From: Marsupella aquatica
Taxonomy: Eukaryota > Plantae > Marchantiophyta
Direction: 5' to 3'
Length of the DNA stretch: 64,000 nt
Assembly (NCBI GenBank): GCA_973895155.1
Contig: OZ316894.1
Span: forward strand, 6,968,234-7,032,233
Below are positions 4,361 to 46,823 of the stretch, one piece after another. The notes beneath the pieces are model-generated. The model had not been told where the DNA came from, did no database searches, and saw only the letters and a list, made by a program, of their open reading frames with translations. The position numbers and the translations under genes are program-made. Position 1 is the stretch's first letter; the number at the start of each line of letters is the position of its first letter.

Positions 4361-4365
4361 CATAT

Positions 4366-11753: not shown

Positions 11754-11864
11754 TGCACATCAAAATATGACATATACTATGTGCACCCTGCATACCGTGA
11801 TAATCCTAGTTTTTTTCTTTTAATCAATGAACGCAGTCACATTTTGATGTGTGATTACCAGCAG
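11754..11864. repeat. Foldback/MITE-like repeat, copy 2 (inverted relative to 298-412)
   Basis: TGCACATCAAAATATGACATATACTATGT...CACATTTTGATGTGTGATTACCAGCAG is the near reverse complement of 298-412. Confidence 0.7.
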
Positions 11865-14569: not shown

Positions 14570-14778
14570 GAGATAAATGATACTGAAGAACATGAATGCA
14601 TAGCCTCTTAAGTTTTCCTCATGTTTTTCTTTTCTAGGTTTATAGTTTTTATTGAAAGGAGTGTCATTCATAATGAGAGAAATGATGCTGAAGAACATGA
14701 ATGCATAGTCTCTTAAGTTCTCCTCATGTTTTTCTTTCTTAGGTTTATGGTTTTTATTGAAAAGAGTGTCATTTATAA
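14570..14778. repeat. ~105 bp imperfect tandem duplication
   Basis: AAATGAT.CTGAAGAACATGAATGCATAG.CTCTTAAGTT...GAGTGTCATT occurs twice. Confidence 0.75.
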
Positions 14779-14789
14779 GGCACCCTGAG

Positions 14790-15785
14790 GAGATATATGC
14801 TTGATGGGCCCCCTGGTGAACCTTTCTTACCTGATGGGCCCCTAGGTAACTTTTTTTACCAAGTAGGACCCCTCTTAATGACCAGTACACCTGTTCTTGT
14901 GTGGTGCCTACACCTGTCCTTGTGTGGTGCCTACTATGTATGGTGACTTCAAGAAAACTGCACAGTTGAACCGTGCGGTCGATTTTACATGGTCGACCGA
15001 GAAACCACAGAGATTATTCGGGAGAAACCGTGAAAAGCGACTGCCGCTGTCGAAAGTGCGATTTGAAGACAATATGCATTATGTCTTCGGATTCACTGGG
15101 TTAATGCTTGAAGACACAATGAATTATGTCTCCGGGTTCAAATTTTTACCGTATCGTGGGGTAGTTATTAGGTATGTTTTTCACGTTGCACACATGGGTT
15201 TTTCATGATGTTTTCATGCACGACTGTCAGCGTCAGTGTGGGGTACCTCCAAATGTCCACAAAGAATATTCAAGTTCAATGTTCATAATTTGCCTACTGT
15301 CGCCACAACAAAAATTGATAAATGATTGACAATTGCGCTCAAAAATGGTAATATTCCCTGTGCAATGCATACAAACAATTTTAAAGAAGACAGACCCAAA
15401 GGTGTCGGGGTACACCCTAAACCCTAAACCTTGAAACACAGGAAAATATAATCCATTGAGTCTTCAGGCATTAACCCATTGAATCCGAAGACATAATGCA
15501 TATTGTCTTCAAATCGCAGTTTCGACAGCGGCAGTCGCTTTTCGCGGTTTCTCCCGAATCATCTCCGTGGTTTCTTGGTTGACCATGCAAGGTTGACCGC
15601 ACGGTTCAACTGTGCAGTTTGCTTGGAGTCACCATACATAGTAGGCACCACACAAGGACAAGTGTAGGCACCACACAAGAACAGGTGTACTGGTCATTAA
15701 GAGGGGTCCTACTTGGTAAAAAAAGTTACCTAGGGGCCCATCAGGTAAGAAAGGTTCACCAGGGGGCCCATCAAACATATATCTT
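14790..15785. mobile_element. Non-autonomous MULE-type foldback element (~1 kb, ~335 bp TIRs)
   Basis: 14790-~15128 is the reverse complement of ~15448-15785; perfect 9-bp TSD CACCCTGAG (14781-14789 / 15786-15794). Confidence 0.9.
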
Positions 15786-21660: not shown

Positions 21661-21969
21661 AACACGATTTCGGACCGACCGAGAAGTGTGACACACTTCT
21701 TGTTTAGCCCGATTCCATTTTTTAAGGCAATGCAATCTCCAATAAAACTGCCAAAAAATCAAAAAAACATGAGTTGCCTACATTGCATCGCCGCGGGAAT
21801 GCAGGGAGCGATACGTGCATCGGGTTTTACATTCAGTCTGTGAAAAAGTCCGAACTGCGAGTAACTTGGTCCAAAACCACGTAATCGAGGGTCGACCACG
21901 CACTAACCCGGGTTAAGGCGGAAAGTAACCATGGTTAAGGGGGAAAGTTACCATGGTTAGAGCATCCCC

Positions 21970-21977: not shown

Positions 21978-22276
21978 GAGGAGCGGGTTGCCCATAAAAA
22001 GTTTATTTTTGCCAGAGCGAACAACACCTCACTCAAAGTGAATATTGAACTCCTATCAAGTCTTGCATTCCTCCCAAGAGACTTGACTCTTTCTCCAGAG
22101 AACCCAATAAATTTATCGGAACTACCATTCCAGTCAAGTATCATCCATGTAAGGTTGACTTGTCATTTGGTGTCAATGTCCTGATCCGAGAGGACTGCGA
22201 TAAATTTATCGCAGTTTGCATTCCTCTGTTGCATTCCTTTGATCCAGTGCGCATTCATTCCATAAATTATATTCAA

Positions 22277-22500
22277 AGTCCAATAAATTTATCGGAGTAT
22301 CCATTCCTATCATTGATTGAAGATTGCTTGAGACTCCGATAAATTTATCGGAGTTTCCATTCCTATGATTGATTGAAGATTGCCTGAGACTTCGATAAAT
22401 TTATCAAAGTTTCCATTCCTGTGATTGATTGAAGATTGCTTGAGACTCCGATAAATTTATCGGAGTTTCCATTCCTATGATTGATTGAAGATTGCTTGAG
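22277..22500. repeat. 4 x 56-bp tandem repeat, each unit carrying the palindrome CCGATAAATTTATCGG or a variant
   Basis: Palindrome starts at 22280, 22336, 22392 and 22448, a 56-bp period. Confidence 0.9.
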
Positions 22501-23243
22501 TGTGTGAGGGAGTCATGTCTTCAAGATGAATGCGAGGTGCGATAAAGTTATCGCACCCTCCTGTGAGACTCATCTTCCTTTGTTTTGTTTGGAGACTCAT
22601 CTTCCTCTATGATGTCGCAGTGCTGCAAGGTTTAGGAGGCACAACGAAAGGTCGATTGCACTTGGTGGATCAAAGGTATAGTGACAAATAGCTGTCTTAA
22701 TTCAAAATCGTGTCAAACGTGCATGCCGGTTGTACAAGAAACTCATGCAACGTAAAGTTCTCCCCATTGGTGTAGGAGTGTTGTGGATGGGTGGTACTGA
22801 TCCCGGAGATAGGCAGAATCCTCTCCGGATTGAGTTCTGCGGAATGAATGGTGCAGGAGTTCCAATCCGTTCGAGGTTGATGTTAATAGCGTGTCTCAAT
22901 TCTTTGGAGTTTTCTTGTAACTATTGTTGTCGTCGTCTTGACAACAAGTACCATAAATTGGCATACTTATGTTGTCAGATTTGGAACGAGGACCCTTGGG
23001 TCAACCTTTCATGATGAGTGTTGTGACCTTCACATTGTGGCGCATTTTGTAAGGACACATTTAAGTAAACAAGTCCTACCCATGTGCAGCGAATACAATA
23101 TGGTCCGAGTCCTAATCTTTAAACTATCATGCAGGGTTGGTACTGTGGATATCTTCGATTACACTTGGTGATGAAGGTACTTTTATTGGTGGTTTTGGTA
23201 GCTCTGCTTCATTGCTGCGTCGGAGAACCTAATCGTTGCTAAG

Positions 23244-23759
23244 ATGGCATCTGTATTAGCCCACGAGCGTAGGAAATATATTCAAGGAAAAGTGCCTAGT
23301 GTGAAATGTGGAAGTCTGTTGAATGGACTTCCTGATCAACTTGTTGAATCTCACATTTGGCCTCTCTTGGCGTTGTCTTGCACACAAGATGAACACCTTG
23401 GCCTTGACCTAAAACTTTTACCCGAAGAACGACTGGCTCGAATGAGAACAATCATTTGTCTTGGAGCCATCTTGAAGAAATGGAACCATCTTGTTGTTGG
23501 TACACAATTTTGGGCTTTACTGAAATATGCAGTCTATGAGATTAATGACATAAACCAAATGCTCGCAAGCATTCCTAATGCCGACCTTCTCTCAAACCTA
23601 CATATTGCTAGGGTCTTCCGAGAGGAAACTCATTTCCTCCCTCCCATAGATATGCTTGGGTGCTTCTCGTATGACCGATTAGATGCGTTTCTTAGAGTTT
23701 GGGTGAATCTTGGAGAAAGCGGGAAGCGGACAATTCTTGCATGGCATGGACAAGTCTGA
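23244..23759 (+). CDS. F-box-like protein (transposon cargo), 171 aa
   Basis: LLNGLPDQLVESHIWPLL...IICLGAILKKWNHLV fits the F-box consensus LP-E-L-I...L-VCK-W with an insertion; intact ATG-to-stop ORF. Confidence 0.55.
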   Translation: MASVLAHERRKYIQGKVPSVKCGSLLNGLPDQLVESHIWPLLALSCTQDEHLGLDLKLLPEERLARMRTIICLGAILKKWNHLVVGTQFWALLKYAVYEINDINQMLASIPNADLLSNLHIARVFREETHFLPPIDMLGCFSYDRLDAFLRVWVNLGESGKRTILAWHGQV

Positions 23760-24003
23760 GCGGATGAGGCATTGCTGCAAACATCCGATAAATTTATCGC
23801 ACTCCTCATTCCTCTGGTCGATTTAGTAGTCAATTGTTTTGGGTGCTCTAAGGTTTGCTCAAGAAGAGCTTGTAAAAAAACACTTTGAATGTAAATGACC
23901 CTGCCTCGCCTGACTTCGGGTTGTGTGGTCCAGAGTGTAGTTTTTTGCGCCTCTACGGATGATTATGTTGGGTATTTACTCTTACGTCTAGGTTAGGTAT
24001 GAC

Positions 24004-24127
24004 GTGGTTGGTACAACAACGCGGGTTGGTACAACTACGTGGTTAGGTACAACTACGTGATTAGGTACAACTATGTGGTTAGGTACAACTACGTGATTAG
24101 GTACAACTATGTGGTTAGGTACAACTA
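24004..24127 (+). repeat. ~7 x 18-bp tandem repeat in the U3 region of LTR A (also ~30078-30201)
   Basis: Unit GTGGTTAGGTACAACTAC and variants. Confidence 0.85.
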
Positions 24128-25540
24128 AGTTGCACACTATATCATAAGAGGCATGTGTGCTTGGAGAGGTAGAACCAAGGCTCATTGTTATGGAGCCACT
24201 TGAGAGATAGGGAGAGCTTACACTGTGGAGACTCGGTATAGCCGACGGGCTTAGAGTTCAGTAAAGCTCTCTTGTGTGTTCCCGTGGACGTAGCCTCAAG
24301 GAGGTGAACCACGTATCTCTTGTGTCGACTATTGTGCGTTGGATGGTTCATGGGCTTGCCGTTGCGATCGTCGTCTATGCTCAACAATTGGTATCAGAGC
24401 ATGCTTGGGAGGTGACGTTTGTTCGTGACGGGATTTCATGATGGTTTTTCCAGCGTTGAGTGTTGGTGGATTTTCCAGAGTTCCATCGCATGGAACTTGG
24501 AGTTTATGGGCTCAACGGATAGATCAGGGCAAGAGCTTTCTAACGGTGTGAAGAAATCGTTGAACGGAGCTCGTGGTGCAGAGAGATCTAAGTTTTTGTC
24601 GTTCTGGATTTTGTGAAGAAAGTTGGCAATCGACTCAGAGGGAGAAGCGTCAAGTGTTTTGACTCAACGGAGAGATTGAGGCAAGACGATTGTTTTTGAG
24701 TCCGGGATTGGCTCTTTGATGCAAAGAGGAAGGCTAAGCAAAATCAATTACCTTGTTGGACTTGGTGACGACACCAAGTGCAATTGATCAACATTCGTTG
24801 TTGACAAGGTACCATTTTTTTCTCTTTGAAAAACTGATTCGAAATTGGCTATGGCAATTGAGAGAAATCTGTCATCTTTACCAATTTTTTTCTCCCTCGT
24901 TCTTTCCTCGTTTTGGGTGCTTCTTATATCGATCTTCATCACCTCGGAGTCTAGTTTCCAAATCTGAAATCGGATCTTGATTTAGTCAAAACTCGAGTGA
25001 GATATCTTGCGTTTGGTGTCGAGGGGTACATTCTGCCGTGTGTATTTTCTGCGCGCGCGACCAGATTTCGACGACGAAGGGTGGTAGGGGGTTTTGGGGG
25101 TTCGAGGACACATGTCAGCCCCTCGATTGTTCTTCCAAAATTCCCACAGGGCCTGTACAAGGGTCATAGAATATTCCAAAAAACCAGAGAGCTATTTTTT
25201 GACCGTCCGACAAAGATTTCATCCGCCGAACGGTAACTTTTTTGGTTATTTTTTGGCGAGGTCGTAGCCATTGAAGTTGGCAATGCAGCGCACCAATCAC
25301 ATCGCAATTCCGACAACGGGTTGTACTTGGTATTTCGGTTATTCCCTGAGGTGGTCAAAACGGGGGAGTTTCCCAAGGTTTTACCCACCTCGACCAAAAT
25401 TTGAATAACTTTTCCGTCAAATTTCGATTTTGATTTCGGTTTTCAGTATTGGACTCCTAGCTTTGTGGGCTACGCGGCGGTGTTGAGTTTCGAGTTTTTT
25501 GAGAAGTTGTGAAAAACAACATTTTTTGTGACTTTCTCAT

Positions 25541-28500
25541 ATGAGTGATTCGGAGGAGTTTTTCGAAGACGTGGAACTTGAAGCACGAGGGTCACCGCGG
25601 AGGTTTCAGGGGCAGAGAGAGGAGCAGGAGGAAGAGCACGTGACACCGATACCATCACCGGTGCGGCGTGTGGTGGAGGAAGCAGTACTACTACCGGAGC
25701 TCACGGTAAAGAAGAAGATGGGGACTTTCAAGCTTGGGGGACCCAAGTATGAAGTGACAAAGTATGATGGGCGCTCTGACTACTTGCTATGGGAGAAGCA
25801 GGTGAAGGGAGTGCTTTATGCGTCAGGGATGGGCCAACTGCTGAGCCCTCGTGAAGACGATGTTGATGAGAAACAATGGGACCGCATGCAGGAGCAGGGA
25901 GTGTGGTGTGTTACACTCTATCTCATGCCTCCCATCATCAAGCAGTTGGGTGCACATAAGGATTGCATGTCCTTGTTTGCGGAATTGCAGAGCAAGTATC
26001 ACCGCAAGGAGTTGTCGAACCGGCTCTACACTTCCTACAAACTGATGAGTTTCAGGATGAAGGAATCTGGTATGAAGTTGCAAGACCATGTGGATGCTTT
26101 CAACGACATGGTTGTTGACTTGGAAAACCTTGGGGAGACTTTGAATGATGAGACAAAGGCTCTGCAGCTTCTTAGTTCATTGTCTCCATCTTACCAGTCC
26201 CTATCACGAGTGTTGTTGCATCGTGATAGGGATACCATTTCATAGAATGACGTGGTAAGTTCTCTGCTTAGTGATGATCTTCAGCAGAAGATGCACATCA
26301 CGTCACAGCCTTCATCATCTGGTGCTGCCCTCAATGTTAACCGTGGGAGGAGTATGCAGCGACCAACTGGGGACCGTAGAACCCAGTTTAGATCTAAATC
26401 CAGATCTAAGTCCAAGGGTAAATCCCCTCAGAGGAGGCAGGTGACATGTTGGAAGTGCAACCAAGTTGAACACTTCAAGCAAGACTGTAAGGGAAAGGCA
26501 GCGGAAACTTCATCGGCAAATGTGGCTAGGGCTGATGGAGAAGCTGATTTACTCAATGATGAGTATGTTTTATGAAGCCGGGGGTATGCCCTGTGCACGT
26601 CATCTAGGAGAGCAGATGATGTGTGGATTCTTGATTGTGCTTGCTCTTTTCATATTTGTTACATTCGTGAGTTTTTCAGTTCTTACTCTATTTCAAACGG
26701 TTTAGTTCTGATGGGAAATGATCACTCCTGTCAAATTGAGGGAATTGGGTCTGTGAAGATTCAAATGTTTGATGGCGCTGTGCGCACAGTATCCGGAGTC
26801 AGGTATGTACCTGGCATGCGTAAGAATCTGATTTCACTCGGTGTGTTGGATTCAAATGGTCATCAATGGAGCGTTATTGATGGTGAACTTCAAGTCAGGT
26901 CGGGAGAGACAGTGATTTTGAAGGGGAGTAGACAAAAGAATTTGTATGTGTTACAGGGCAATACTGTATGTGGAGAGGCCAATGTAACCAAGTCTCACGA
27001 GGAGATGACTCAACTGTGGCATTCACGGCTAGGCCACATGAGTGAGAAGGGTTTGGCTATCTTACGGAAGAATGGACTCATTTCTGATTTGCAATCTTGT
27101 AAATTAGAGTTTTGTGAGCATTGCATTCTTGGAAAGCAGCATCGTCGTGCTTTTGGTGTTGGAACTCATCGTTCCAAAGCGGTTCTTGAGTACATACATA
27201 GTGACGTGTGGGGTCCATCCCCGACTCCCTCACACTCTGGAAAGTTGTACTATGTATCATTTATTGATGATTACTCAAGATTTTGTGTGGATTTATTTCA
27301 TGACGCATAAGTCTGATGTCTTGTCCATTTTTAAGAAGTGGAAGGCCCAGGTGGAGAATCAGACTGGAAACACGATCAAGTGTTTGGATACAAGGGTGAA
27401 GAGTCTGAGGTCAGACAACGGCGGGGAGTACACTTCAATGGAATTTGAAGAGTGTTGTTCAGAACAGGGGATAACTCGCCATCTCACCACAGTTTATACT
27501 CCGCAGCAGAATGGTGTCGCTGAGAGGCTCAATCGGACACTGTTGGAGCGGTCACGGAGTATGTTGAGCCAATCAGGTTTACCACAAGAATTTTGGGCAG
27601 AAGCTGTCAATACCGCAGCTTATTTGGTAAATCTTTCTCCTTCTAGTGCTATCAATTTCAAAACGCCGTTTGAGATGCGCTATAAGCGGCAAGCAGACTA
27701 TCATGGCTTGGTAGTTTTTGGAAGTGATGCATATGCTCTCACACCAAAGCAGAATAGGACCAAGTTGGATCCTACCTCCAGGAAATGTGTTTTTCTTGGG
27801 TACCAGAGTGGTGTGAAAGCCTATAGGCTATGGGATCCTATTGCCTGTAAGCTCGTTGTCAGTAGGGATGTTTCCTTCAATGAATCCAGATTATTGAAGG
27901 AGGGGGAGAATACTCAGGTCTCCCGTACTGACAAAGGAAAATCTCCTATCCCGGATCTCGTTGAGGGGGAGATTGGTTATGAGGTGCATGACCGGAGAGA
28001 AGGAGTTGCTCCAATTATGGAGCTGGTTCCTGTGCCAGAGGAACCAGAGGAGTTTGTTGATGCTGGTGAGCAGCAAGTGGATGCTGTTGAGCTTCAAATT
28101 GTACCAGCACACGCAGATCAACCGGAGTCATCGGCTAGAAGAACATCTGGTCGCACTGTACGCGCTCCACCAAGGTATGGACAGTGGGTTGATTCATCTC
28201 AACTGCAAGAGGATGATTTTACAGCTGATGATGAGGGTGATGCGTTAATTTTGGAAGAAGGAGAACCTTCTTCATTTCATGAGGCAAGTGCTTCAAAGGA
28301 GAAGCAGAAGTGGACTGCAGCAATGCAAACGGAGATGCAGTCACTAAAGGACAACAAAACTTGGGAGCTTGTTAAGCTGCCTAAGGGTCAGCAAGTGGTG
28401 GACAGCAAGTGGATTTACAAGCTAAAGGATAATTCCATAGGAGGTGGATCGAAGGTCTACAAGGCTAGATTGGTAGCAAAGGGATTCACACAAGATAAAG

Positions 28501-29849
28501 GTGTGGATTACAATGAGGTCTTCTCACCAGTTGCTAAGTACTCTACAATACGACTATTGTGTGTACTTGTTGTAATGTTTGGTCTGCTCCTAGATCAGAT
28601 GGATGTTGTCACAGCTTTCCTCTATGGCACATTGGAAGAGGTGATCTTCATGAGACAACCGCTAGGTTTTGTGAAGAGAGGACAGGAGGAATTGGTTTGC
28701 AGATTGTTGAAATCCTTGTATGGGTTGAAGCAATCACCAAGACAGTGGAACAAGCGGTTTGACGATTGGATTCGGTCACAAGGTTTTCACAGAAGTGTAT
28801 TTGACCCTTGTGTGTATTTGAAACCGGTGAAGAATGTTGTCTTTGGGTTCATTGTTTTAGTACTTTATGTGGATGACATGCTAATTGCAGCCAAGGATAG
28901 GTCTGAGATTGTTAAGCTCAAGGCACTGCTTAGTGCAGAGTTTAAGATGAAGGACTTAGGGCCAGCTAAGAGGATTTTGGGTATGGAGATCACTAGGGAC
29001 TTGGAGGCTGGCAAGCTATGGTTGATGCAGAGCAGCTATGCGAGGAAGGTAATTGCAAGGTTCAACATGGAGAATAGCAAGCCAGTAAGTACCCCGTTGG
29101 CTCCACACTTCAAGTTATCATCAGCGTTCTGTCCTACGGATGACACAGAGAAGGGGTTGATGTCAAAGGTTCCATATGACAAGGCAGTGGGGAGTCTCAT
29201 GTATTTGATGACTTGCACTAGACCTGATCTTGCCATGGCTATGGGCAAGGTGAGCAGGTACATGTCGAATCCAGGGAAGGTACACTGGGAAGCAGTGAAG
29301 TGGATTATCAGGTACTTGAAGGGTACCGTGGATCATGGTCTTTTATTTGATGCGAATGCAAAGAATGCTAGATCATTGATTGGCTATGTAGATTCTGACT
29401 ATGGACAAGATTTGGACCGAAGAAGATCAACAACAGGATACGTGTTCACACTTGGCGGTGGATGCATAAGTTGGAGGTCTACTTTGCAGAAGTGTATTGC
29501 TCAGTCTACTACAGAAGCGGAGTATGTTGCAGCTGCGGAAGCAGCAAAGGAAGCGATTTGGTTGGATAGACTTATCACTGAAATGGGATTGCCACAGGGG
29601 AATGTGAAGCTCCATTGTGATAGTCAAAGTGCGCTCCACCTTGCTGTGAACCAGGTGATGGACAGCAGAGTGAAGCACATTGACGTCAGGTACCATTTTA
29701 TCAGGCAGGCTGTGTCTGATAATTTGTTTGAGCTAGTCAAGATTGATGGTAAACTCAACCCGGCTGACGCATTTACCAAAGTGATTCCTTTGGAGAGTTT
29801 CTCTAGACACCGTGACGTATTGCAGGTTTTGCAATTGCATCACAAGTAG
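25541..29849 (+). pseudogene. gag-pol: Copia A gag-pol
   Basis: Zn knuckle CWKCNQVEHFKQDC, protease WILDCACSFH, GAG-pre-integrase LWHSRLGH, integrase LRSDNGGEY, RT LYVDDML, RNase H KHIDVRYHF. TAG at 26243, TGA at 26573, frameshift near 27283. Confidence 0.93.
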
Positions 29850-30589
29850 AGTTTTCTTAAACATTCATTGTAATTACTGATATATGCTCTTCCTCATTCC
29901 TATGTATTAGGCTACGGCTTAGTTCTGGTTTGCTCTAGTTAGAGAGGGAAACCGGTTTGGTTCTGTCCAGAACTTCCCGCTGAGGGATCATATACATTGG
30001 CAGTATTACTCTCCCCTAGACCAGAGTCAAGGGGAAGATTGTTGGGTATTTACTCTTACGTCTAGGTTAGGTATGACGTGGTTGGTACAACAACGTGGGT
30101 TGGTACAACTACGTGGTTAGGTACAACTACGTGATTAGGTACAACTATGTGGTTAGGTACAACTACGTGATTAGGTACAACTATGTGGTTAGGTACAACT
30201 AAGTTGCACACTATATCATAAGAGGCATGTGTGCTTGGAGAGGTAGAACCAAGGCTCATTGTTATGGAGCCACTTGAGAGATAGGGAGAGCTTACACTGT
30301 GGAGACTCGGTATAGCCGACGGGCTTAGAGTTCAGTAAAGCTCTCTTGTGTGTTCCCGTGGACGTAGCCTCAAGGAGGTGAACCACGTATCTCTTGTGTC
30401 GACTATTGTGCGTTGGATGGTTCATGGGCTTGCCGTTGCGATCGTCGTCTATGCTCAACAGATTAGCTGACAAGTGCATTGGCTTCACAGCCCGTTATAC
30501 AAGGTACTATAAAGTTGAATGAAACTTGTAGAATTGTAATGAGTATGTTCTCCAAAATGTATTCCTGATTTCTATTCGCTGATCAGGTC

Positions 30590-31066
30590 ATGCTCGAGCG
30601 ACGCATTTTTGTACCCTTCGTGGATCCTCCGGAATGGGGGAATGGCGCCCTGATGGACCAGCTAAGGAAGCTGGATGAATCACTAATTTTAAAGATTTTC
30701 AAGCTGGTAGCAAAAGCATTTTATAATAACGCATATCACTTCTACGTAGACCAGGTAGGGGGAGAAATTTATATCCGGTGGGATAGATATGCTGCATTTC
30801 CTAGAAGTATTATCCTGCTTTTTCTTAAAACCGATGTAGTAAAACGTTTTATACTGCACTGCTGTCATGTTGTGAAGGGCAATCCTGCCTATGAACCAGA
30901 ATTCTATGCCCACAACAGACGTAGAGCATTCGATGAGATTCAGGATGTGATTGACCAGTTGGACAATCCTCTTGCTACCGAGTTTTTGATTGACACTGGT
31001 GGGAAGTTATATTCGTATAGGACTCGTCAACTCCCCCTAGGCCTCTTTGTCCATTATTTAGGTTAA
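30590..31066 (+). CDS. Hypothetical 158-aa protein (Sola-like element cargo)
   Basis: Clean ATG ORF with globular-like composition inside the element; no family recognised. Confidence 0.45.
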   Translation: MLERRIFVPFVDPPEWGNGALMDQLRKLDESLILKIFKLVAKAFYNNAYHFYVDQVGGEIYIRWDRYAAFPRSIILLFLKTDVVKRFILHCCHVVKGNPAYEPEFYAHNRRRAFDEIQDVIDQLDNPLATEFLIDTGGKLYSYRTRQLPLGLFVHYLG

Positions 31067-31462
31067 CTTATGTACCTTGTTTATGGACAAATGTCCTTGA
31101 CAATGGTGAGATGTGTCAGTATTGCACAAATGCCTGTTGTGATGTTCCGTCACGCCGCTATTCAGTAGCTGTAGTTAATCTTGAGACCGGTGCCACAGAT
31201 TTTCATTGGTTGTGGGCCTATGATCATAGGATCACTCATATACCCCAATGGCCCAAGAAGCTAATCTCTCGCTTTGTTGTAGCGCAATTTGATCTTGGGT
31301 GGGATGATTGATTAGGCACATTATCACATGTACACTCGGTCGTCAATTTAAAGAAGGCTCACTTTTTGTTTGGACCACTTTTGCGATAATTTTATCGGTG
31401 TTGGTCTCATTTTCAAATGTTGACTGTACGTACGATAATGTAATCTCGACCGTCAATTTACA

Positions 31463-31758
31463 CTTGGGGGTTTCACTTCCACAAAAATGGCATATCACGT
31501 GCAACGAAGAATAGGGTCATTTTATTGGTTCTAAGGGAAGACTTAAGAATTTTTGTAGAAGAACAATAGGGTCTTTTAAATTCAATTTTGAGACTTATAA
31601 GAACATTAGGGTCTTTTTAATCCAATTTTTAGAATATTCCAAGAATATTCCAACTTTATAGGGGTTAAAAAATAATGTTTTTTCTTACATTTTAGGGGGT
31701 CCGAGGCCTAAAAACGTCGCAGGCGATGGGGAGGTCCCCATATAGTGAGACCCCCGAG
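31463..31758. mobile_element. MITE (same family as 5091-5396) nested in the Sola-like element
   Basis: Termini CTTGGGGG...CCCCCGAG; TSD AATTTACA / AATTTATA; reverse complement aligns by eye with 5091-5396 along its length. Confidence 0.75.
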
Positions 31759-32346
31759 AATTTATATCGTGCTCATATTTTTTTGCGATAATTTTATCGG
31801 AGTTAGTATCGCTCGTGGAATGACCTAATGCTTGTACGTGAATGAGGACTTTCTGAATTCATTGTATCGATGTTTGCATGCCAGTTTTTGCTTTTTGGGT
31901 TTGTCAGAGCAATAAATTTATCGCTTCTTGCATTCAGATTTGCAGACTTTGTCATCATGGGTCCTAGTGGGAAGAGTGGATCTGCCGAGGCTGAAAGTCT
32001 CATGACAAGCCTCACGAACGCGATTTGGACAAGCGAAGACATTTGTGAAGAGGTCAAGTTCATCAAGAAACCGTGATTCTTCCGCGACGCCAGGTTACAA
32101 TCCAAGGATATGGCAGACTGTGAGTCTCCTATCCTTTGGGTCCAGATGCAAAAACCCGCAAAGGTTACTCTCTCGTTTGGCCCCGTTGTTGGTGTGGCAA
32201 TCTGTGAGTACTTGATTAGCCAAGGAGAGGCAAAAGTGTTGAAAGAGGGTCTGAGTTTCTTGACAATGTGTGGAGGCAAGGGATTCACCTCTATCATTGT
32301 CACCATGGAGAACTTTCTTGAGAAATCCCTTGAGAGTTACCCTGAA

Positions 32347-35300: not shown

Positions 35301-38300
35301 GATTCTAGATAGTGCATGTACTTTTCACATTTGCTCTAGAAGAGATTGTTTCAGTTCTTACACGGTTTCCAACGGGTCAGTGTTGATGAGAAATGGAATC
35401 CCATGTCAAGTTGTTGGACTTGGATCTGTAAGATTTCAGATATTTGATGGTGTTGTGAGAACATTGAGGAATGTGAGACATATTCCCAGCATGATGAAAA
35501 ATCTCATTTCACTTGGAGTTTTAGAGACAAATGGCCATCAGTGGAGTTCTGCTAATGGTGTCCTTCAGGTTTTAACTAGTACTAAAGTTGTATTGAAGGG
35601 AAAGAGACATTGCAATCTATACATTATGGAGGGCAGTGTAGTCTATGATGAAGCCAATGTAACCTTATCTCATGAGGAGACGGCCCGGCTGTGGCACTTC
35701 CGTTTGGGCCACATGAGTGAAAAAGGTTTGGTTATTCTTCAGAAGAAAGGATTAGTTTCTAATTTGCAATCTTGTAAGTTGGAATTTTGTGAGCACTGTG
35801 TGCTAGGGAAGCAGCACAGGAAACCCTTCAGAGTTGGAACTCACACCAACAAGGAGGTACTTGAGTATGTACATAGTGATGTGTGGGGTCTCGCCCCTAC
35901 TCCCTCACATTCTGGATGGTTATACTATGTCACGTTCATTGACGATTACTCAAGGTATGTGTGGATATACTTTCTACACAATAAGTCTGATGTTTTTGCC
36001 ACTTTTAAGGAGTGGAAAGCCCAAGTTGAAAATCAGACTGGTAATAAGGTGAGATATCTTTGATCGGATAATGGCGGTGCATACAGTTCTGGTGAATTTG
36101 GAACGTATTGTAAGGAGCAGGGGATTACCCGCCATCTCACAACAAGCTATACTCCTCAGCAGAATGGTGTTTCTGAGAGACTCAACCGAACACTATTGGA
36201 CTGCTCGAGGAGTATGTTGAGTCAATCATGCTTACCACATGAGTTTTGGGCTGAAGCTGTCAACATTGTAGCTTATTTGGTAAATTTTTCTCCATCCAGT
36301 TCTATTGGATTCAAGGCGCCATTTGAAATGAGGTACGTGCGTCTAGCAGATTACTCACATCTGAGGATTTTTGGATGTGATGCTTATGTGCTTACACCTT
36401 CCCAGCTTCGATCCAAGCTGGAGTCCAAGTCAAAGAAGTGCATTTTCCTTGGTTATCAGAAAGGTGTGAAGGGTTATAGGTTATGGGATCCAGTAACCTG
36501 TAAGCTAATTGTCAATAGAGATATGTCTTTTAATGAATCCAGATCATCAAAGGAGGGGGAGAGTTCTCAGGACTCCCATACTGACAAGGGGAAATCTCCC
36601 ATCCCGGACCGGGTTGAGGGGGAGATTAGTCATGATGTAGTTCATGACAGGAGAGATGGAGAAGCTCCGGGCTTGGAGCTGGTTCCTATGATGGAACAAG
36701 AGGAGCAAATTGTTGCTGGGGTACCTCAAATTCAACCAGCAGCAGCAACAGATCAGCCTGAGTCATCTATTAGAAGAACTTCCAATCGTTCTACTAGAGC
36801 TCCTACCAGGTATGGTCAATGGGCAAACTCATCTAAGCTAGATGATATTGACATTGCACCTGATGAAGATGATATGGCTTTGATCTTGGAAGAAGGAGAG
36901 CCTTCTTTGTATAGTGAGGTTTGTGCTTCAGAGCAGAAGCATGAGTGGAATGCAGCAATGCAGAGGGAGTTGCAATCTTTGAGTGACAACAAGACATGGA
37001 AGCTGATGGAGCTTCCAAGAGGTCAACAAGTGGTGGACAGCAAGTGGATTTACAAGTTGAAGGACAGTCCTTCAGAGGGTGGAGATAAGATCTACAAGGC
37101 AAGGCTTGTTGCCTAGGGGTTCACTCAGGAGAAAGGAGTGGATTACAATGAGGTCTTTTCACCGGTGGCTAAGTATTCCACAATTCGGATCTTGTGTCAG
37201 CTTGTTGTGTTTTTTAATCCGGTGATGGATCAGATGGATGTTGTTACTGCTTTTCTCTATGGCAACTTGGAAGAGATGATCTTCATGAGACAGCCACTAG
37301 GCTTTATGAAGAAGGGCCAAGAGAACTTAGTTTGCAGATTGCTCAAATCCTTGTATGGATTGAAGCAGTCTCCTAGACAGTGGAACAAGCGGTTTGATGA
37401 TTTCATGCTTGCTCAAGGTTTTACAAGGATGGTGTATGATCCTTGCGTGTATACGAAATCAGTCAAGCATGATGTATTTGGTTTCATCATTCTGGTGATC
37501 TATGTGGATGACATGCTAATTGTGGCTAAAGATCAATCTGAGGTTGACAGTCTCAAGGCGAAATTGAGCGCTGAATTCAGGATGAAGGATCTTGGTAAGG
37601 CCAAGAGGATCTTAGGGATGGAGATTTTTAGGAACTCTAAGACTGGACAGTTGTGCTTGAGTCAAGGCCAGTATGCGAGGAAAGTACTTGCACGATTCAA
37701 CATGGAGAACTGTAAGCCAGTGAGTATTCCTTTAGCTTCACATTTCAAGTTATCATCGGCTTTCTCTCCTACGGATGCTGTGGAGAAAGGTTTGATGGCT
37801 AAGATTGCTTATGAGAAGGCAGTAGGCAGTCTAATGTATTTGATGACTTGTACTAGGCCTGACTTGGCCCTAGCGATGGGCAAGGTTAGCAGATTCATGT
37901 CAAATCCAGGGAAGGTACATTGGGAAGCTGTGAAATGGATTCTCAGGTATGTGAAGGGAACATAGGACTATGGATTACTATTTGATAACAGATCAAATAG
38001 AACGTTAGTTGGCTATGTAGATTCTGACTATGAAGGCTGTCTGGATACAAGGAGATCTACAACTGGGTTTGTATACACTCTTGGAGGAGGATGTATCAGT
38101 TGGAAATCTACCTTGCAGAAGTGCATATCTCAGTCTACTACAGAAGCAGAGTATGTTGCAGCAGCAAAAGCAGCAAAGGAAGCAATTTGGTTGGATAAGT
38201 TGATCGTGGAGATGGGTTTAGAGCATGGAAAAATGACTATAAACTATGATAGTCAAAGTGCTCTTCACTTGGCTGCTAACCAGTTGATGGATAGCAGGGT

Positions 38301-39020
38301 GAAGCACATTGATATCAGGTACCATTTTATCAGGCAAACAATGTCTGATAAAACTTTTGAGCTAGTCAAGATTGATGGAAAGCTCAATCCCGCTGATGCT
38401 TTTACCAAAGTGATTCCTTTGGAGAGTTTCTCAAGACACCGTGCTACTTTGTAGGTTTTGCAGTTGTAGTGCAAGTAGAGTTATTTAGCAATGTGTGACT
38501 GTTTGTATATGGATTACTCATTCCAGTTAGGCTACGGCTTAGTTCTAGTTAACCCTTAGTTAACCCTTGTGGTTTTTAGGGGGAGACCTGGTTTGGTGAT
38601 TGTCTAGAACTTCCCGCTGAGGATTCCATATGGTAGCATTTAGTCCAGTCCCCAACACAAGAGTCAAGGGGGAGTTTGTTAGATATTGCTCTAGTCTTGT
38701 GACTCTTGTGCTAACCACAGTTAGGCTAACTCGGGTTAGGACCTAGCTAAGGTTAGCGGTAGTGCTGTTGTGCATATAGCCAGGGCTGATGCCAGACCCT
38801 GGTGGAACTTAGGCTCATTGTTACGGAGCTAGTTGAGAGATAGGGAGAGCTTGTGTTGTGGATGCTTGGTATGGTCGGTCGGCCTAGAGTGCAGTAAAGC
38901 TCTTGTGTGTTCCCGTGGACGTAGCCTCATGTGGAGGTGAACCACGTATCTCTCTGTGTTGACTATTGTGCGTTGGATGGTTCATGGGCTTGCCGTTGCG
39001 AATGTCGTCTATGCTCAGCA
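32347..39020 (+). mobile_element. Full-length Ty1/copia LTR retrotransposon B (older)
   Basis: 344-bp LTRs 32347-32690 and 38677-39020 (8 mismatches seen, all transitions), TSD CTGAA, mutated PBS TGATATCAGAGC, PPT AAGGGGGAG. Confidence 0.97.
34197..38454 (+). pseudogene. gag-pol: Copia B gag-pol
   Basis: CWNCGKPDHMKRDC, WILDSACTFH, LWHFRLGH, YVDDML, KHIDIRYHF; stops at 35248, 36061, 37114 and 37963, frameshift near 35100. Confidence 0.93.
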
Positions 39021-40419
39021 CTGAAGATGCGGTTGTCGCGGAAGTTAGGTCAGCAAAAGTAATGAATCTTATGGGCCCAGCTTGAGTGTGCCAGTTTGTC
39101 CAAGATCTGGTTCTGGAGTCAGCGTTAAGAGAAAGAGAATAAGCTGGAGTTTATCCACAGCCCCGGAAGGAGTGGAAGCCCCGATCGATATGGAGCCTCC
39201 GATGCTTGATGAGCGTTTGCCTCATTCAGATATACAAGCCGAGGTTTGATCGGTAAGTGCTACCAAACTTTGATTTTCTATTGACAAAAGAGGATTCCGA
39301 TAAAAATCTCGCTGTTTCTTTTGCAATCTAATTTCAAATGGCATTTTCTAGATTGATGAAGAGGAGGAGACTGCTCTTTCAATGTATGAGACTGACGCCA
39401 TCAAAGCGGAGGTCAGTCTGCTGATGCAACGAAGGGTTCAAACGACAACTGTCCTCTTGCATGTCGACAATTTAATTTTTGATGAAGCTGGAGAGAAGTC
39501 AACTTTGATCAGACCAGTGGACAAATTGCATGTGGAGAATATCAAGATTCTTCTAAGGAAAAACCCCACTAACTTCAGCGCACCGTTTGTGCTGTGTGTG
39601 GATCCGGAGGATTGTCCCACAATCGAGGATTGGGACATTCTAAAGTCCAGAGTATGGAAGTATAGAATTATTGGAGGAAATCATGGTGCTTGGGCAAAGG
39701 CCGAGTTGTATAACATGTATGGGAAGCAGATTTATGGTGAGCTGGAAGCTTGGGTATACGCAGGACTTACCAAGTCGGAGGTCCGGAAGTTGGGCTTCCA
39801 GCACAATTATGACCAGGAGTATAGGAAGAACATGACTCAAATCGATAGAGTTCGTGCGTGCCACAATATCTTTGTTGAAATGGATGTAGGATCAAACAAG
39901 GATGTTCGCGAAGCTTGTTGTCAGGAATGTATGCTGCAATACACTCCCGGTGTTTGTGACAGCATGGCCAAACATGACCCAACATTCCAGATTGCTTTTC
40001 GAACGGGTGAAATTTGGGATCTTCAGGAGAAAGTTTTCCAGATGTGGGAGAAGGGGACTGTCTTGGATCGTGGCAACAACAAATGCAAAGGGAAAGGTTA
40101 AACCTTTAACGCTAAAAGAGATTAAAATGAATAGACTTGCAGGTGACCCAATTTAAATACTTTTCGAGGTCTTCAAGGACAGTCAACTAAGGAGCATGTT
40201 AAGCGGCTCTTGAATAGGGTCATTGGGAAAGTGATCACCTTGGATCAAATGCACAAGGAAGGGGAAAAGTTGAAAAAACTTTCCAAGGTGAAGAAATTAT
40301 TCTTGCAAATATCTGGGCAGCCCGACTGGGCAACGTGCAGAGAAATGTTTCCAAATGAGACAGATGTTTCCGTCCTGGGAACATGGGCAGAGAAGTTGAG
40401 CGAAGCGGTAAGCACCCGT

Positions 40420-40575
40420 CTCTCCCCGAGATTTTTATCGGCCTTGCCATTCCATTAGTAGATTTTTGCATTCCTCGTTCCATTCAAAAATCATTGCGAG
40501 ATTTTTATCGGCCTTGCCATTCCATCAGTACATTTTTGCATAACTCGTTTCATTCCCGAGATTTTTAACGACTTT
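40420..40575. repeat. Intronic tandem repeat (2-3 units, 60-70 bp) carrying palindrome variant CCGAGATTTTTATCGG
   Basis: Variant copies at 40426, 40496 and 40556 within the MTase-gene intron. Confidence 0.75.
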
Positions 40576-42189
40576 CGTATTCGTTAAGCAATTTCATTCT
40601 GATTGGAATTATGTGCGACCTTTGATACAGCTGAAGATTGGGTCGAAACGGAAAAATAAAGTTGTTCCGCCTGTGCAATATAATTTGGCGGGGGAGGTTA
40701 TTGTTCCCTCCGCTGACATCCCGTATGTGTTCAAGAATTTTGTGCTTGCTACAATTGATCGGTACAACCGGCTCCAGGCGCTAAGCGAGGACGCACGAGA
40801 AGCCGCGGAGCAAAATGGAAAAATGCTGACGGAGATTCTTTCTCTTACTATCTCCATGTTGGGGATGTTCGAATTTTGGATACTTTTGTGGAGGCAAAAC
40901 CTTACACTCTTACCGTCGCCGACATTCCGTATGGTTTTAATGCACTTGGTTCGGAGTTTGATGAAGTGTCCTTCCCGGAAAAGGACGTTGTAGATATGGT
41001 GAGAAGTTTTTTGAACATGACAGCTCCTAAGCAGTGGAGGTTTGTTGTGATCCATTCATTACAGCAAACAAATATGGTCATGTCTGCGCTCGAGATTGTG
41101 TGCAACTGTGGGGTTGAGTCTGGAATTTGGGAGAAGACCAACATTCATGAGCGTCCCGCCGGTGCTCGATTGGCGTGGGGTTTTCAAAAACTGGTCGATG
41201 GGATTCTACAGCGAGGAAGGCATCCGGAACATGAACATGTACAATTTCCAACCGGATGAGTCTCGCATCAATATCATCAAGGTTCCATGTGTAACCAAAA
41301 AGTCTGTTGATCCGTTGGGCTATGTTGTGAACCCATACCAAAAGCCTGTTGGTTTGGGTGCTTGGTTCGTTACTCATTTCTCGGAGAAAAATGACTGGGT
41401 TATGGATCTTTGCTGCGGAACCGGATCCATGTTAGCAGCGGCTCTTCTCAATTCTCGCCAGGGTTGTGCGGTCGATAAAAGTGCTGCGCAGATTGATTTT
41501 GTGAGACATCGGATTATGACTCTAGAGTCAAACTGGAATTTATATGATGAAGCACAGATTGAAGGGCAAGGCGGCGAAGGTCTAGAGATTCAACCACCGA
41601 TTAGAGGCCAATTGGGAACATTGGGGACTTTGACTTTCACTGTTGAAGTCGTGAAGGAGGTCGAGAATGAAGAAGAAGCCGAAGAACCTCCCAGAATGCC
41701 TAACGAGGATGATCTCAATGACATGTTACTGGATTAGGAAATTGTTATCTGGTTGTATGATAGTTAGGTTAGGTTAGTTTAGGTTATGTTAGATTATGTC
41801 AGTCCCACTTCTCAATATTCAGAGAATGGAGTGTGATAAATTTATCGCAATTATGTTTGAACCCGATAAATTTATCGGACATTGCATTATACTCCCTTGT
41901 TTGTCATGGTGTTCTAGCTGGGGACTTATCGGACTTTGCATTCCACGCTCTAGCTATTCCACTCCCTTATTTGTCACGATGTTCTAGTTGGGGGAATGGA
42001 GTTGTCGATAATATTATCGAAGTTTGCATTCCACGCTCTAGCTAGTTAGTCATTACAATCAATTAAAAAAAAGATATAATTATAGCTTCGGAGAACAACA
42101 TACTTAGTCCCAGATGTTCACGACTGCGACCATCCTCATGGGAATGATAACCAGCTTAACGATAACCATTATAACTTAAAACCTTTACA

Positions 42190-45100
42190 CTAGCTTCTAC
42201 TATCAACGACTACAGTGTCCATCATTGCATTTTGAATGATTCGTCTTGTTTGTACAGGGAGAGTACTATTTGCCAATAACGCAAAGTTATACGCATAAAC
42301 TGTAGTTTCTGCTAGGGACAGTTCATCCTCCAGTACTTTGTTAGACGAAGCCTCTTTCTCCGGATAATATCTGCCTTCAATTGCAGACTCCTCTTCCGAA
42401 TCCATTGCATACCAAGTGATTTTAATTTGCTCGGGGATGTTGTTAATTTTTGTGAGAATCTCAGTCACTTTTGCCATCCAGAATGGTCTTCCCTTTGGAT
42501 CCTGATGGGCTGCTACACATATCATTGAAAATTTAGTATTCACCTCTAGATCCTTGAAGTCTTCAATTTCCGTGACTTTTCTCCAACTTCCGGAATACAT
42601 GACTGTCCTCACACCCGCTATTTTATCAACCAAGATAGGTTCCATTGCTGCTTTCATAGGATTGGTCGTAGGTTCTCTCTGTACATTTACCTTGGGCCAA
42701 CTCCAATCAAAACTCCATTGTGCAGGTTCAGGTGGTGCTGAATCACTTCTTTTTGTTTGTCCAAAAAACGACCCCACCATAGCCGATCTTTGTCGTCAAA
42801 GTAATTGAATCCATCTTCAATTGCTCTCCGATACTTTTGAAGAGTCAAAAAATGATTTTGCGCCGCCCGCTCGTCTTGTTCCTCAATACCATTCTCTTGA
42901 TCATCATTGTCTCCTGTTGCTCCCGTGGCCGACTTCAATGCAATTTGTGGTGCGACCCACATTCCAGATGAAGGAATGTATCGAACAAATTCCACGGGCT
43001 CCCCCAATCTGTTGTCATGGAAAGATGTTTGGCATGGAAGACAGATAGAGCACTCCCATCTTCGAGTACTCTGGTAATCCAAAATTGTTTCTGAGCACTT
43101 ATGTCGTGGAGACTACACAGAACTTGACCATCCATATCCTTGTCATTTGCTTGATCCTTGTCAGACACAAATTTTTTGAAATCGGCAACCTCATCGACAA
43201 AAAATATTTTTGCCGTAGGATTGTAGGATTCCTCTATGATTGCGGAAAGAGTGTCCAATCGAAAAGCTTTTTGCTTGTTCAATTTTGAAGAAAACTTGCT
43301 AAACATTTGATCAATTTGGTCATGGGTGTGCCCAACCAACAGAAAACCAACCTTTATTTTTTGGAAAACACCTATCTCCACCAACATGTTCAAATATGCC
43401 ATAAGATATTTATTCTTGTTTTTCCGAGCAGTGTTATCAAGCTGGAGGTAAAGCACTGGAGGGAGCGGACCTTCCCAGGTATTCAGAATATGCTGAATAA
43501 CGTGGATGGTCAGGTTGCTATCATTGTGAATATTTGGATAGTTCAAAAAAATATTTGAACTCAATTGTTTGTTGAAGATCAAACAACCCACTATGTGTAC
43601 AGGGATAAAATACTTCTCATCCATATTCTTTGGACACCGAATGAAATGAGGTAACTCTCTCTTCTTTTGATCCATTCCATCAATACAGATGCCCAAATAT
43701 TTCTCTGGACTCTTGTAACATTTGCTCCGGTGCTTTGCTAACTTCTCCCTCTCCACTGCCTTCCGATGTTTGTTTAGCAATGTTGAGAATTTTCCTACAA
43801 TAATAAAAACGTTTAGAACTTTGCTGGCCTGACAGCGATAAATTTATTGGGTTCAGTATTCAAACACTTGATTTGATAACCATAATGTTAAACCGTGACA
43901 CCGATAAATTTATCGGGATAAGTATTCAAACAATATATTCACACATTACCAAAGAAGAAGCATGGGAATACTCAACCCGATAAAATTATCGGGGATAAGT
44001 ATTCAAACTGTTCAAACGATATATTCACACACATTACCAAAGAAGAAGCATGGAAATACTCAACCCGATAAAATTATCGGGAGTAACACACGGGTTTAGA
44101 AACTTACTCTTTTCTACTTCGAGTGTTGCCTTATCACGAAGTGCTTTGAATTCAGTACACGGGGCGTAAGTGGAGAAACGACTCCTTTTGGGGATGCGCA
44201 CGCGAGGAAACTCTTTGTTCCAAATGCGAACAAACCACAAATATGTCACGCCTTGTTCTTGGCGCATTAGAGTTTCAGACTGGAAGGCGTCAAAAACTTC
44301 TGTTTTTGTCCAATTGTCAGGTAAATGAAAGATATCCTTGTTGGGGAGACTCTCTACATTTGTGGTAAAAAAATCATCCAGCCACTGAACAAGACCAAGA
44401 TGTGCGGTCGATTTTTCTCTACAAAATGTATCGATCTGTATCCAAGAAAACATGTTCTTCAAGATTTTTTGGAGACGATTATTTCCTAGGAAAAATAATT
44501 TCTTAAAACCACTCCGACAAAAGGATCTACCGCTAACTGAGTAACCACTTGCACCGACATGCCCACCCTTCACACATCCTCTTAGAAGTACGTTCTTCTC
44601 TTGGTAGGATAGCCCATAGTAATATGTGCGTTGTTTCATCACATCCAGCAGACCCAAATTCCTCAGACAAAAATTATCACAACATGGATACTTATAAATT
44701 TCTTTCATTTTGTTTCTATTCAATTTATCATTTATCACATTGTCTTTCCTAGTAATTCGATCTCTATCTTTTTTACTAGGCTCATTTGACTTCTCTATAG
44801 ACTGAAATCCGATGAGAACATTGGCATTTTCCTCTCCTTTTGGTACCTTGCGAATAGGTGCATCACTCTCTGCTGAGCTACCATCCTCCACAGATCTCCT
44901 TGACGCATTTAGAGGGGCACTGAAAAGGTGACTAAAACTATTCCCTTCTACAGCTCCTTCTAAACATTCAGACACAACTTGTGCTATGATATCGGATTCT
45001 CTATCTCCTTCCTGATCTTTGTCCTCTGATCCACTTGACTCATCTGAAAACACAATTGGACTCCGTGGCTCTCTATACATAACCCGAACACCACTAAGAC

Positions 45101-45653
45101 CTCTCCTCGACACTTGGAGCCTGGAACCAATCACAGTCCGCCCTGGAGAACTTGGAGAATCTGGAACTCTGAACGGTGAACTATTCACACGTGCAGTATC
45201 AACAACTCCGCGAGCTGCAGGAAAATTGAGCACTTGTTGACCATGATTCCCACGGACCATTCGAGAAAGGGCCAAGTCTGGACTCGCAATCCAATTCCCT
45301 CGGTTGCTCGCACGTCCAGTCCAGGCAATGCAAAGACCGATCGCCATATCGGTCTTTGTATTTCTACCTCCTGATTCTCACCCGGAGACTGAAAAATTTG
45401 TCGTTGAATGTGGCGACTTGAATGCTGAGTGCAATACGCGTATCGGTCGCCGGATAGCCTCTCCATAACCCGGGATGGATGGCCTGAAGCGACGTCTTGG
45501 ACCTAAACCTGGGATTGTAATTTTCTCATTCCTTGGCGATGGAATGCTCAAGAGACGATGCTTCTCAGGTTTACTAGGCGACACATAGTAAGAACTGGGC
45601 TCAGGACCAGAACTTGCATCAGAATCTGAATTAGCGTTAGAAAATTTGGGCAC
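42190..45653 (-). pseudogene. Sola-like DDD transposase (exon ~45650-44108, intron 44107-43795, exon 43794-42190 with frameshifts)
   Basis: Cys-rich N-part CCDNFC...GRSFCRSGF; catalytic-like CIDGMDQ, LYLQLDNTARKNKN and FLLVGHTHDQIDQMFS. Splice EK|RKFSTLL is in frame; in-frame TGA at 45378. Confidence 0.82.
43835..44085. repeat. Intronic repeats in the transposase gene carrying 4 palindrome copies
   Basis: Palindromes at 43835, 43901, 43977 and 44065; duplicated ATATTCACAC(AC)ATTACCAAAGAAGAAGCATGG.AATACTCAACCCGATAAAATTATCGGG. Confidence 0.8.
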
Positions 45654-45909
45654 TATTTGTGTGAGAGAGGTAGAGCTTTAAGTATGCACTTGGCAAACAG
45701 CGAGCGACAACATTAGGAGAGGATTCAACTGAACTTGAAGGTGAATCTATGTCTGATTGAGACATGGCTATCTAAGACACTATGGGGCTTTGCATTCCTC
45801 CCTCAATCAGGGAAAACAAATGGCTCAACCGACAAAATGTTGCTCCAAGAACACAACTCCCGAAACTCTACTCTAGATAATGACGCCAAAAACTTATCGG
45901 CGGTGACCC

Positions 45910-45916
45910 TTTTATA
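45910..45916 (-). promoter_or_regulatory. Candidate TATA box for the Sola-like transposase
   Basis: CACTATAAAAGG on the minus strand ~260 bp upstream of the transposase ORF; motif only. Confidence 0.3.
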
Positions 45917-46823
45917 GTGTCTGTTGAGGGGTTGGCCCACGTGGCCACTTTTGATTCGCCGTCTCGCTAAACGACAAAATAGCAGAGAAGGGTATATTTC
46001 TTGGATTTCCAATTTGATTCTTACACGTGCATCATGGAGAAATTATGTAGTTTTGAAATTTAAGCGATAAATCTATCTCATGTTGGTATTGCAAAAAGTG
46101 TTTCCTTCATATGGAAAGTTGCAATTTTGAAATTGCAGCGATAAATCTATTTGATGTTGGTATTGCAAAAAGTGTTTTCTTAATATGGATAGTTGCAATT
46201 TTGAAATTTAACCGATGAACCAAAGGATCTTAGTATTGTCGGCAAGTATTTTTGCCGTTCGAAGTTGCCACGATAATTTTATCGGATTGTGCATTGTTGT
46301 TGAGACAACGGCATGTTGACTATGCATATATGTGGTTACTATGGTCAATTGCGGAGGTAACTGAAAGGTAAATTTGACAAACTGTGCGGTAATTTCTTAT
46401 CGACTGTGATGTAAAATAGTTACGATAAATAACCAAAAACTGGGGAAATTGAGATTCGGTCGGAACTTTCATGGTTGAAATCCGAAGTCCGATACAGGTA
46501 TCGGACTTTGTTTGAAAAGTGGATATAGATTCTAGATAAGACGTTTCATATATCTTCGGAGAGCGTGAATATGAGGTTCTGGCAAACATTTTTTGGATCT
46601 AATTTTTCCTTGATAAATTGAATGTTTGTGACCATTAATTTCAGTGGTTCGGACCATTCCTGAATTTCTTGATTCAATCCAAACTCCGATATAGATTACA
46701 TTATTTCCCCAAAAACCTGTTTTAAATAAAAAAATTCACCAATTTTGTGAGATTCGGCGGAAAATGAAAACACACTTCTCATTTGCGGAAATAGTTCTCG
46801 TTCAGTCGGAAATTGTGTTTGAG

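Follow-up and report, generated by a model that had tools for sequence, protein, structure and literature searches.

The locus analysed here, a 64,000-nucleotide stretch of Marsupella aquatica contig OZ316894.1 (positions 6,968,234 to 7,032,233; hereafter the window), raises the question of what reads a short palindrome that is repeated many times in the non-coding DNA of one transposon. The element spans 21661-46819 and comprises approximately 12 kb of its own DNA together with two nested copia elements. Its genes include a ParB-fold/beta-class amino-methyltransferase fusion (31955-41737, + strand, inferred borders) and a DUF7869 DDE-type transposase (42190-45377, - strand). We find that the palindrome array is a real, family-wide feature, and we lean towards the view that the ParB-methyltransferase recognises the palindromes as its cognate sites. 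The two would form a putative system of self-marking or anti-silencing, comparable in its working to VANDAL/VANC of Arabidopsis.

A scan of the window for the 14-bp core CGATAAATTTATCG returned six exact copies where 0.00 are expected by chance. Allowing up to two mismatches gave 20 copies against 0.17 expected, all of them within the element's own DNA, and allowing up to three gave 30 matches, 27 in the element's own DNA and three outside it (at 4944, 18634 and 38193, the last in a copia). A looser pattern matched 17 times in the 12 kb of the element and not at all in the other 52 kb. The initial annotation had listed 25 palindromes, giving for each the coordinate of the base that flanks the core, and 24 of these match at up to three mismatches, the copy at 40556 having four; the 22-bp perfect palindrome reported at 22194-22215 was also borne out. 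Some details need correction: six copies only are exact, the C/G flank is variable and three copies are an asymmetric variant, CGAGAT/TTATCG. Tandem units of 56, 88 and 74 bp do carry the motif, but they are not wholly unrelated as had been proposed, since an outer (G/C)ATT box approximately 8 bp past the core recurs in many of them; further short repeats bearing the motif are found in the methyltransferase intron and in the 3' spacer. The statement that the copias, the surrounding Mutator-like element (MULE) and host DNA lack copies is correct at up to two mismatches but not at three, and the sites are, as claimed, spread through the interior: the outermost ones are 445 and 548 bp away from the two ends, and the majority lie deep within.

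None of the 25 sites overlaps coding sequence, which makes up 55% of the element. The sites form nine clusters located in introns, upstream regions and spacers, and the lack of coding overlap has a P of about 7e-4 if the nine clusters are independent, with exon borders inferred from splice signals and homology. From the left, seven copies with a 56-bp tandem array (22105-22553) lie behind a TATA-like box near 21969, a single exact copy (23786-23799) stands just past an open reading frame (ORF) at 23202-23756, and three copies (31384, 31786 and 31910; 31384-31923) lie upstream of the inferred ParB-methyltransferase start. Within that gene there is a variant copy (39298-39311) in an inferred intron, and three CGAGA-type variants (40427-40570) occupy the intron at ~40408-40630. 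Further copies (41834-42019) fall in the spacer where the two genes converge at their 3' ends, four (43836-44079) in the transposase intron at ~43795-44107 and three (46065-46284) upstream of the transposase. Several core mismatches are CG-to-TG/CA changes. Positions 46073, 46147 and 46151, degenerate in the window, have the consensus base in most other genomic copies; among variants across genomic copies at 22090-22560, none of the six listed rows falls in a core, which is not significant. In viral contigs the exact motif occurs once in each of the loci listed, as might be expected by chance. Summed contig depth reaches ~80,000-107,000 at 46050-46160, against ~4,000-5,000 over the methyltransferase gene, a peak that may reflect many non-autonomous derivatives that retain sites, or multi-mapping of a repeat.

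Is the array peculiar to this copy? Relatives were drawn from 80 metagenome loci, the best of 209 confirmed, from one scan; 17 carry the ParB-methyltransferase, 16 recognised by hidden Markov model (HMM) and L008 by a tblastn match to the N-terminus of a homolog. De novo searches recovered repeated palindromes, one type per clade: CGA(G/T)AC-N2-GTATCG in the sister clade (L001, L002, L059), CGATR-N5-YATCG with subtypes in a clade of 44 loci, CATGA-N4-TCATG in L008 and TCATT-N4/5-AATGA in a distant clade. The types sort with the transposase tree, a quick version with long-branch warnings from which L070 was excluded as too short. At least one match to the four palindrome patterns was present in 40 of the 80 loci, a few of these being single chance-level matches; many related contigs end at arrays or span coding DNA alone. 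Among the 17 ParB-methyltransferase loci, 15 have their own palindrome, and in the other two (L034 and L050) that region is rearranged or deleted, L050 having lost it. Several candidates were set aside: L052 and L053 are a single folded-back contig, the dyad repeat of L049/L079 is a coding repeat, and the flank dyads of L028 and GTTA repeats of L037/L041 are other repeats.

The transposases of the sister clade are ~69% identical to that of the window, synonymous divergence (dS) is saturated and coding DNA alone aligns, the flanks being unalignable by blastn apart from one 22-bp motif match. The sites are nevertheless in the same slots as in the window, namely the transposase intron (L001 and L002), the 3' spacer (all three loci) and the methyltransferase intron (L059). 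Window and clade have in common, too, the asymmetric CGAGA variant and, 9-11 bp beyond the core, an A-rich box. The proposal that the motif is selected rather than passively duplicated is therefore strengthened, since it is retained in the same non-coding slots despite diverged flanks and changes by clade. This conservation makes the firmest case that the sites are under selection.

One way to account for such sites is that they form hairpins or cruciforms, whether in single-stranded DNA or in RNA, or that their symmetry is a by-product of template switching and of the turnover of repeats, with no dedicated double-strand binder. The variable, loop-like centre is consistent with this, as are palindrome arms that reach 15-20 bp in L009, L032, L040 and L068 and the many contigs that break at arrays. 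The pair just outside the core co-varies (15/24 against 9.6 expected, p 0.018, uncorrected), and so does the next pair in the sister clade (12/16, p 0.009, uncorrected). However, pairing past two positions is at chance level in the window, single copies occur outside any repeat and an Rfam search gave no match. The core letters CGA-A, the non-pairing variant and the outer A box are conserved between clades at saturated dS, which points to sequence readout. We therefore regard structure or turnover as quite improbable causes of the array.

If the sequence is read, it might be read by a host transcription or chromatin factor with no element protein binding at all, and the position of clusters near promoters and in introns would suit such a factor. 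Against this stands the restriction, within the window, of the looser pattern to the element. Moreover, subtypes differ between clades in the same metagenome series and the spacing shifts between 14 and 15 bp, features for which a partner encoded by the element would account more readily. Recruitment of a host factor alone is accordingly very improbable, and other causes extremely so. The likelier readers are the two proteins of the element.

The first is the fusion protein. The initial annotation had named a ParB-like gene, and structure comparison confirms that its product joins the N-terminal fold of ParB to a methyltransferase of the beta class. The window's ParB-like ORF gives a high-confidence fold model (pLDDT 88.7), the Foldseek matches of which are to Noc and ParB (E 1.7e-4). 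The N-terminal domain aligns with the ParB fold over 95 residues (Z 10.6, root-mean-square deviation (rmsd) 2.1), the next-best folds being sulfiredoxin (Srx; up to 9.2) and serine kinases, the two together at Z up to 9.2-9.5, and on the strength of this model we assign this nucleotide-binding domain to the ParB/Srx fold. The helices that follow are colinear with the ParB DNA-binding domain and show a by-eye RAL..KD..L likeness to Noc; one row aligns over 156 residues at rmsd 8.8. In the C-terminal part, motif IV (ADIPYG) precedes motif I (DLCCGTG), which is the beta-class order, and PF01555 matches; the equivalent part of the relative P0017 is a CcrM-like beta-class methyltransferase (Z 24.2 to CcrM). 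The DIPY motif and the motif for binding S-adenosylmethionine are conserved in the window and in compared loci, and the Asp of motif IV suggests N6-methyladenine (6mA) as the product. Beta-class methyltransferases also act as dimers. The ratio of non-synonymous to synonymous divergence (dN/dS) is 0.02-0.03 for the fusion gene where dS is measurable, dS being saturated elsewhere, which indicates strong purifying selection.

A full HMMER search of a 50%-cluster library found 119 relatives of the fusion protein, whereas a word-index search that set the ParB ORF against longer proteins found no match and the ParB alignment gave no usable pattern. Named relatives include proteins of Chara and Riccia, several of which have an N6/N4 methyltransferase domain, and animal proteins that have the ParB-like domain and no methyltransferase domain (P0046, P0201-P0203, P0068). 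Phage records match only the methyltransferase part of P0017. Four abalone species have a 543-548 amino acid ParB-like version with a weak Tudor-like match, which is possibly domesticated. The best Atlas look-alikes of the ParB-like region (window 39352-40407; homolog P0002) are fungal DUF3723 clusters (score 0.95), suggesting that DUF3723 is a ParB-like protein.

The second candidate is the transposase, assigned by PF25273 (E 6e-50), which has one intron and a 5' end that is not fixed. Its conserved acidic motifs (IDGMDQ, QLDNT and GHTHDQIDQ) contain the probable catalytic residues, and its named relatives are from Adiantum and Riccia. No relative was found in the PDB or in viral contigs. We take the DN..NKN..GH..D motif and 4-bp TSD to recall the Sola superfamily, membership of which is not confirmed. 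The C-terminus (42193-42795, - strand) has a conserved PFW-AKV...ITWY segment, also present in relatives, which matches no family and presumably resembles a chromatin-reader barrel. A distant DUF7869 element, L076 (72-429 and 4110-5671), has a dispersed asymmetric TTTGATCAGCCG-like motif in its non-coding DNA.

The palindromes could be internal sites of this transposase that serve autoregulation, trans-activation of the AtMu1 or TnpA kind, or end looping, with the ParB-methyltransferase a cargo that acts elsewhere. According to bioRxiv 10.64898/2026.08.24.746577, transposases can activate cognate copies, and Spm TnpA and the AtMu1 transposase have family-specific clustered motifs bound by the element-encoded protein, as might be the case here; they bind termini or TIRs, whereas the sites of the present family are interior and its TIRs lack the half-site. 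In 20 of 21 termini, cognate half-sites score no higher than in shuffled sequence, and in five complete relatives (L009, L028, L032, L036 and L068) the sites lie 2.6-3.7 kb from the nearest end. In the clade with divergent genes, moreover, the array adjoins the 5' end of the ParB-methyltransferase gene, and in L028 and L032 it sits in what looks from inferred exon borders to be a 5' intron. Four complete relatives that were inspected (L009, L028, L032 and L036) have no long ORF of a third gene, therefore the orphan left-arm ORFs of the window are not needed. For these reasons, namely the lack of a third gene, sites far from the ends, half-site-poor TIRs, a VANC-like interior pattern and a ParB fold that suits a dyad, we favour the ParB-methyltransferase as the binder and consider the transposase rather unlikely to be it.

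A number of findings nonetheless weigh against the ParB-methyltransferase. Since both genes travel together, co-change of motif class with clade fits the transposase equally well, the class following the transposase tree. Arrays are also found in transposase introns and upstream of the transposase (window and L068), and two of the seven sites of L008 are inside the transposase ORF. L009 and L007 have one site each, and one L028 terminus contains a perfect half-site. A low-GC clade of 15 loci shows no ParB-methyltransferase, yet L006, one of its members, begins with the 15-bp palindrome; its left end is uncovered, and all 15 loci stop short of a left end. L071, L075 and L076 have other repeated non-coding motifs and no ParB-methyltransferase on the contig. 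Neither L006 nor any of these three is a complete element, and the search for relatives yielded no complete methyltransferase-less element that could serve as a control. As for the protein, the arginine of the GxxR(xxA) motif is replaced, the window and plant-type relatives having GGNHG or GGSHS there, and is retained in rare rows alone, for example P0068, the box I Arg and the later Asn being mostly conserved. The helical region taken alone matches no ParB DNA-binding domain (best Z 3.4, to unrelated folds), an HMM of this region found no ParB, and hhalign to the ParB DNA-binding domain gave a probability of 3-4% with a 3-sequence template.

How, then, would the ParB-methyltransferase work? 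The anatomy of the element, the non-coding confinement of the sites, the conserved slots, the co-change with clade, the folds and the purifying selection are directly supported, whereas we infer the identity of the binder and of its binding domain, the base that is methylated, spreading if there is any, and the consequence for silencing. A ParB-methyltransferase dimer would dock on the palindrome dyad, either through the post-ParB helices or through the methyltransferase reading a GAT-N6/7-ATC dyad, and would methylate the element, probably at N6 of adenine, at or around the sites. Methylation would probably keep the element transcribed or regulate its own two genes; the arrays in introns and next to the ParB-methyltransferase 5' end suggest that there may be transcriptional feedback. 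Tandem expansion could allow site and protein to drift jointly, as proposed for VANC, and the CG-to-TG/CA mismatches would fit 5-methylcytosine (5mC) on silenced copies, with a possible contest of two marks. Sliding along DNA is conceivable, though doubtful without the GxxR arginine.

Comparison with known systems places the element alongside several of them but inside none. According to PMC5735166, VANC21, an accessory protein, binds introns and intergenic tandem repeats, and VANDAL elements, which are Arabidopsis MULEs, have an accessory gene beside the transposase and short element-specific motifs that are tandem, intronic or intergenic and differ between families, a layout of motifs and genes that is matched here. 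The VANC motifs described there are 8-9 bp, in contrast to a dyad of 14-16 bp; DUF7869 stands in place of a MULE transposase and the ParB-fold/amino-methyltransferase in place of the VANC protein; and VANC causes loss of 5mC, whereas the ParB-methyltransferase could itself write a putative mark. The element would thus resemble VANDAL/VANC in its working without belonging to that system.

Palindromes are bound by dimers of ParB and of Noc (PMC7383237), and ParB-parS and Noc-NBS share with the present system a ParB N-terminal fold followed by helices and multi-copy palindromes that vary between subfamilies. The ParB fold is present in the fusion protein, but the GxxR arginine is lost, no ParA family was found among the ORFs of the window's element, the methyltransferase is fused C-terminally and homology of the DNA-binding domain is not confirmed. 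The palindrome itself is unlike parS in sequence. The analogy with parS drawn in the initial annotation is, on these grounds, unproven.

The beta-class fold is shared with eukaryotic amino-methyltransferases of prokaryotic origin (PMC4738411), including Marchantia DN4MT1 and, as a structure match, bdelloid N4CMT; the motif here is DIPY and that of Marchantia DN4MT1 is TSPPY. PMC4738411 reports methyltransferases linked to ParB at phage loci and, in Dam-type enzymes of chlorophytes and chytrids, a fusion to ParB-HTH. That fusion is a group-2 methyltransferase, and the group-1 clades of section 8 are not described there as ParB-fused or borne by TIR transposons. DUF3723 of fungal Starships is, like the present protein, cargo of eukaryotic mobile elements (bioRxiv 10.1101/2021.12.13.472469, in the part accessible), and the look-alike score given above is a lead without an alignment. 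Starships use tyrosine recombinases, and no methyltransferase fusion or palindrome is described for DUF3723 in that part.

We found no published description of this element or its sites in a search that was thin on subscription journals and stopped short of the PMC4738411 supplement, where the protein family may be listed. If the ParB-methyltransferase does bind these sites, the element would encode a sequence-targeted writer of DNA methylation in plants and other eukaryotes, and would represent a second route to VANC-like self-recognition, assembled from bacterial parts. It would also be a concrete source of localised 6mA or N4-methylcytosine (4mC), with the palindrome arrays as the place to look. 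In L009, L032, L036, L059 and L068 an intact gene occurs naturally together with a site that is known, and such pairs might yield compact site-targeted methylation tools. A bolder version, which we consider possible but doubtful, is that a widespread family of eukaryotic transposons has repurposed a bacterial load-and-spread module of the ParB/parS type, fused to an adenine methyltransferase. Such a module would load at element-specific palindromes, spread along the element and label it as self with a 6mA (or 4mC) mark of its own, in opposition to 5mC silencing by the host. Site and protein would diversify jointly between clades, and Starship DUF3723 may be a methyltransferase-less cousin.

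The TIRs and TSD, seen in the window and in L032 (AACAC...GTGTT with a 4-bp TSD), identify a cut-and-paste TIR transposon; in the contigs of L009, L028, L050 and L068 the TIRs are present with no matching TSD. In the window the TSD, TGAG, lies on either side of the element. The left TIR (21661-21686, + strand) is imperfect and has the same AACAC end as in relatives, and at the right TIR (46794-46819, - strand) one contig of run X2 ends at 46819; there are loose contig ends at both ends of the element. Depth in public contig sets, which does not measure copy number, is more than 10x higher at the left end (1,081 to 14,753 in X1) and drops past the right end, and these steps indicate a multi-copy repeat family.

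The two nested elements are copia long terminal repeat (LTR) retrotransposons, both on the + strand. The first (23966-30460, TSD GATTA) contains no motif copy and has an empty site in other copies, and the second (32347-39020, TSD CTGAA) contains none at up to two mismatches and has its empty-site joint at 32341 to 39021; both empty sites were found in public contigs. The window copy is decayed. The second copia splits the ParB-methyltransferase gene, which also has a 5' stop and a frameshift near 41188, and the transposase gene has a frameshift near 42726; neither frameshift is present in other copies. The left-arm ORFs (23202-23756, and past the first copia 30569-31063 and 31021-31308, all + strand) match no Pfam family and have no match in the 80 related loci, and they occur in other genomic copies. 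A high-depth stretch at 31455-31778 has an inverted match near 5264 (5264-5300) and is probably a separate small insertion, because other copies differ in letters there.

The element is inserted in the transposase gene of a MULE-like element with long TIRs (18638-53277), and the frame of that gene resumes past the insertion site with a CxCx9CxH motif that we take to be SWIM-like. Elsewhere in the window there is a MITE-like element at 14791-15784, with 337-bp inverted arms that are 95% complementary, another copy of the copia LTR family at 6178-6421, outside the element, and a host cytochrome P450 gene with an intron at 8207-10091 (- strand).

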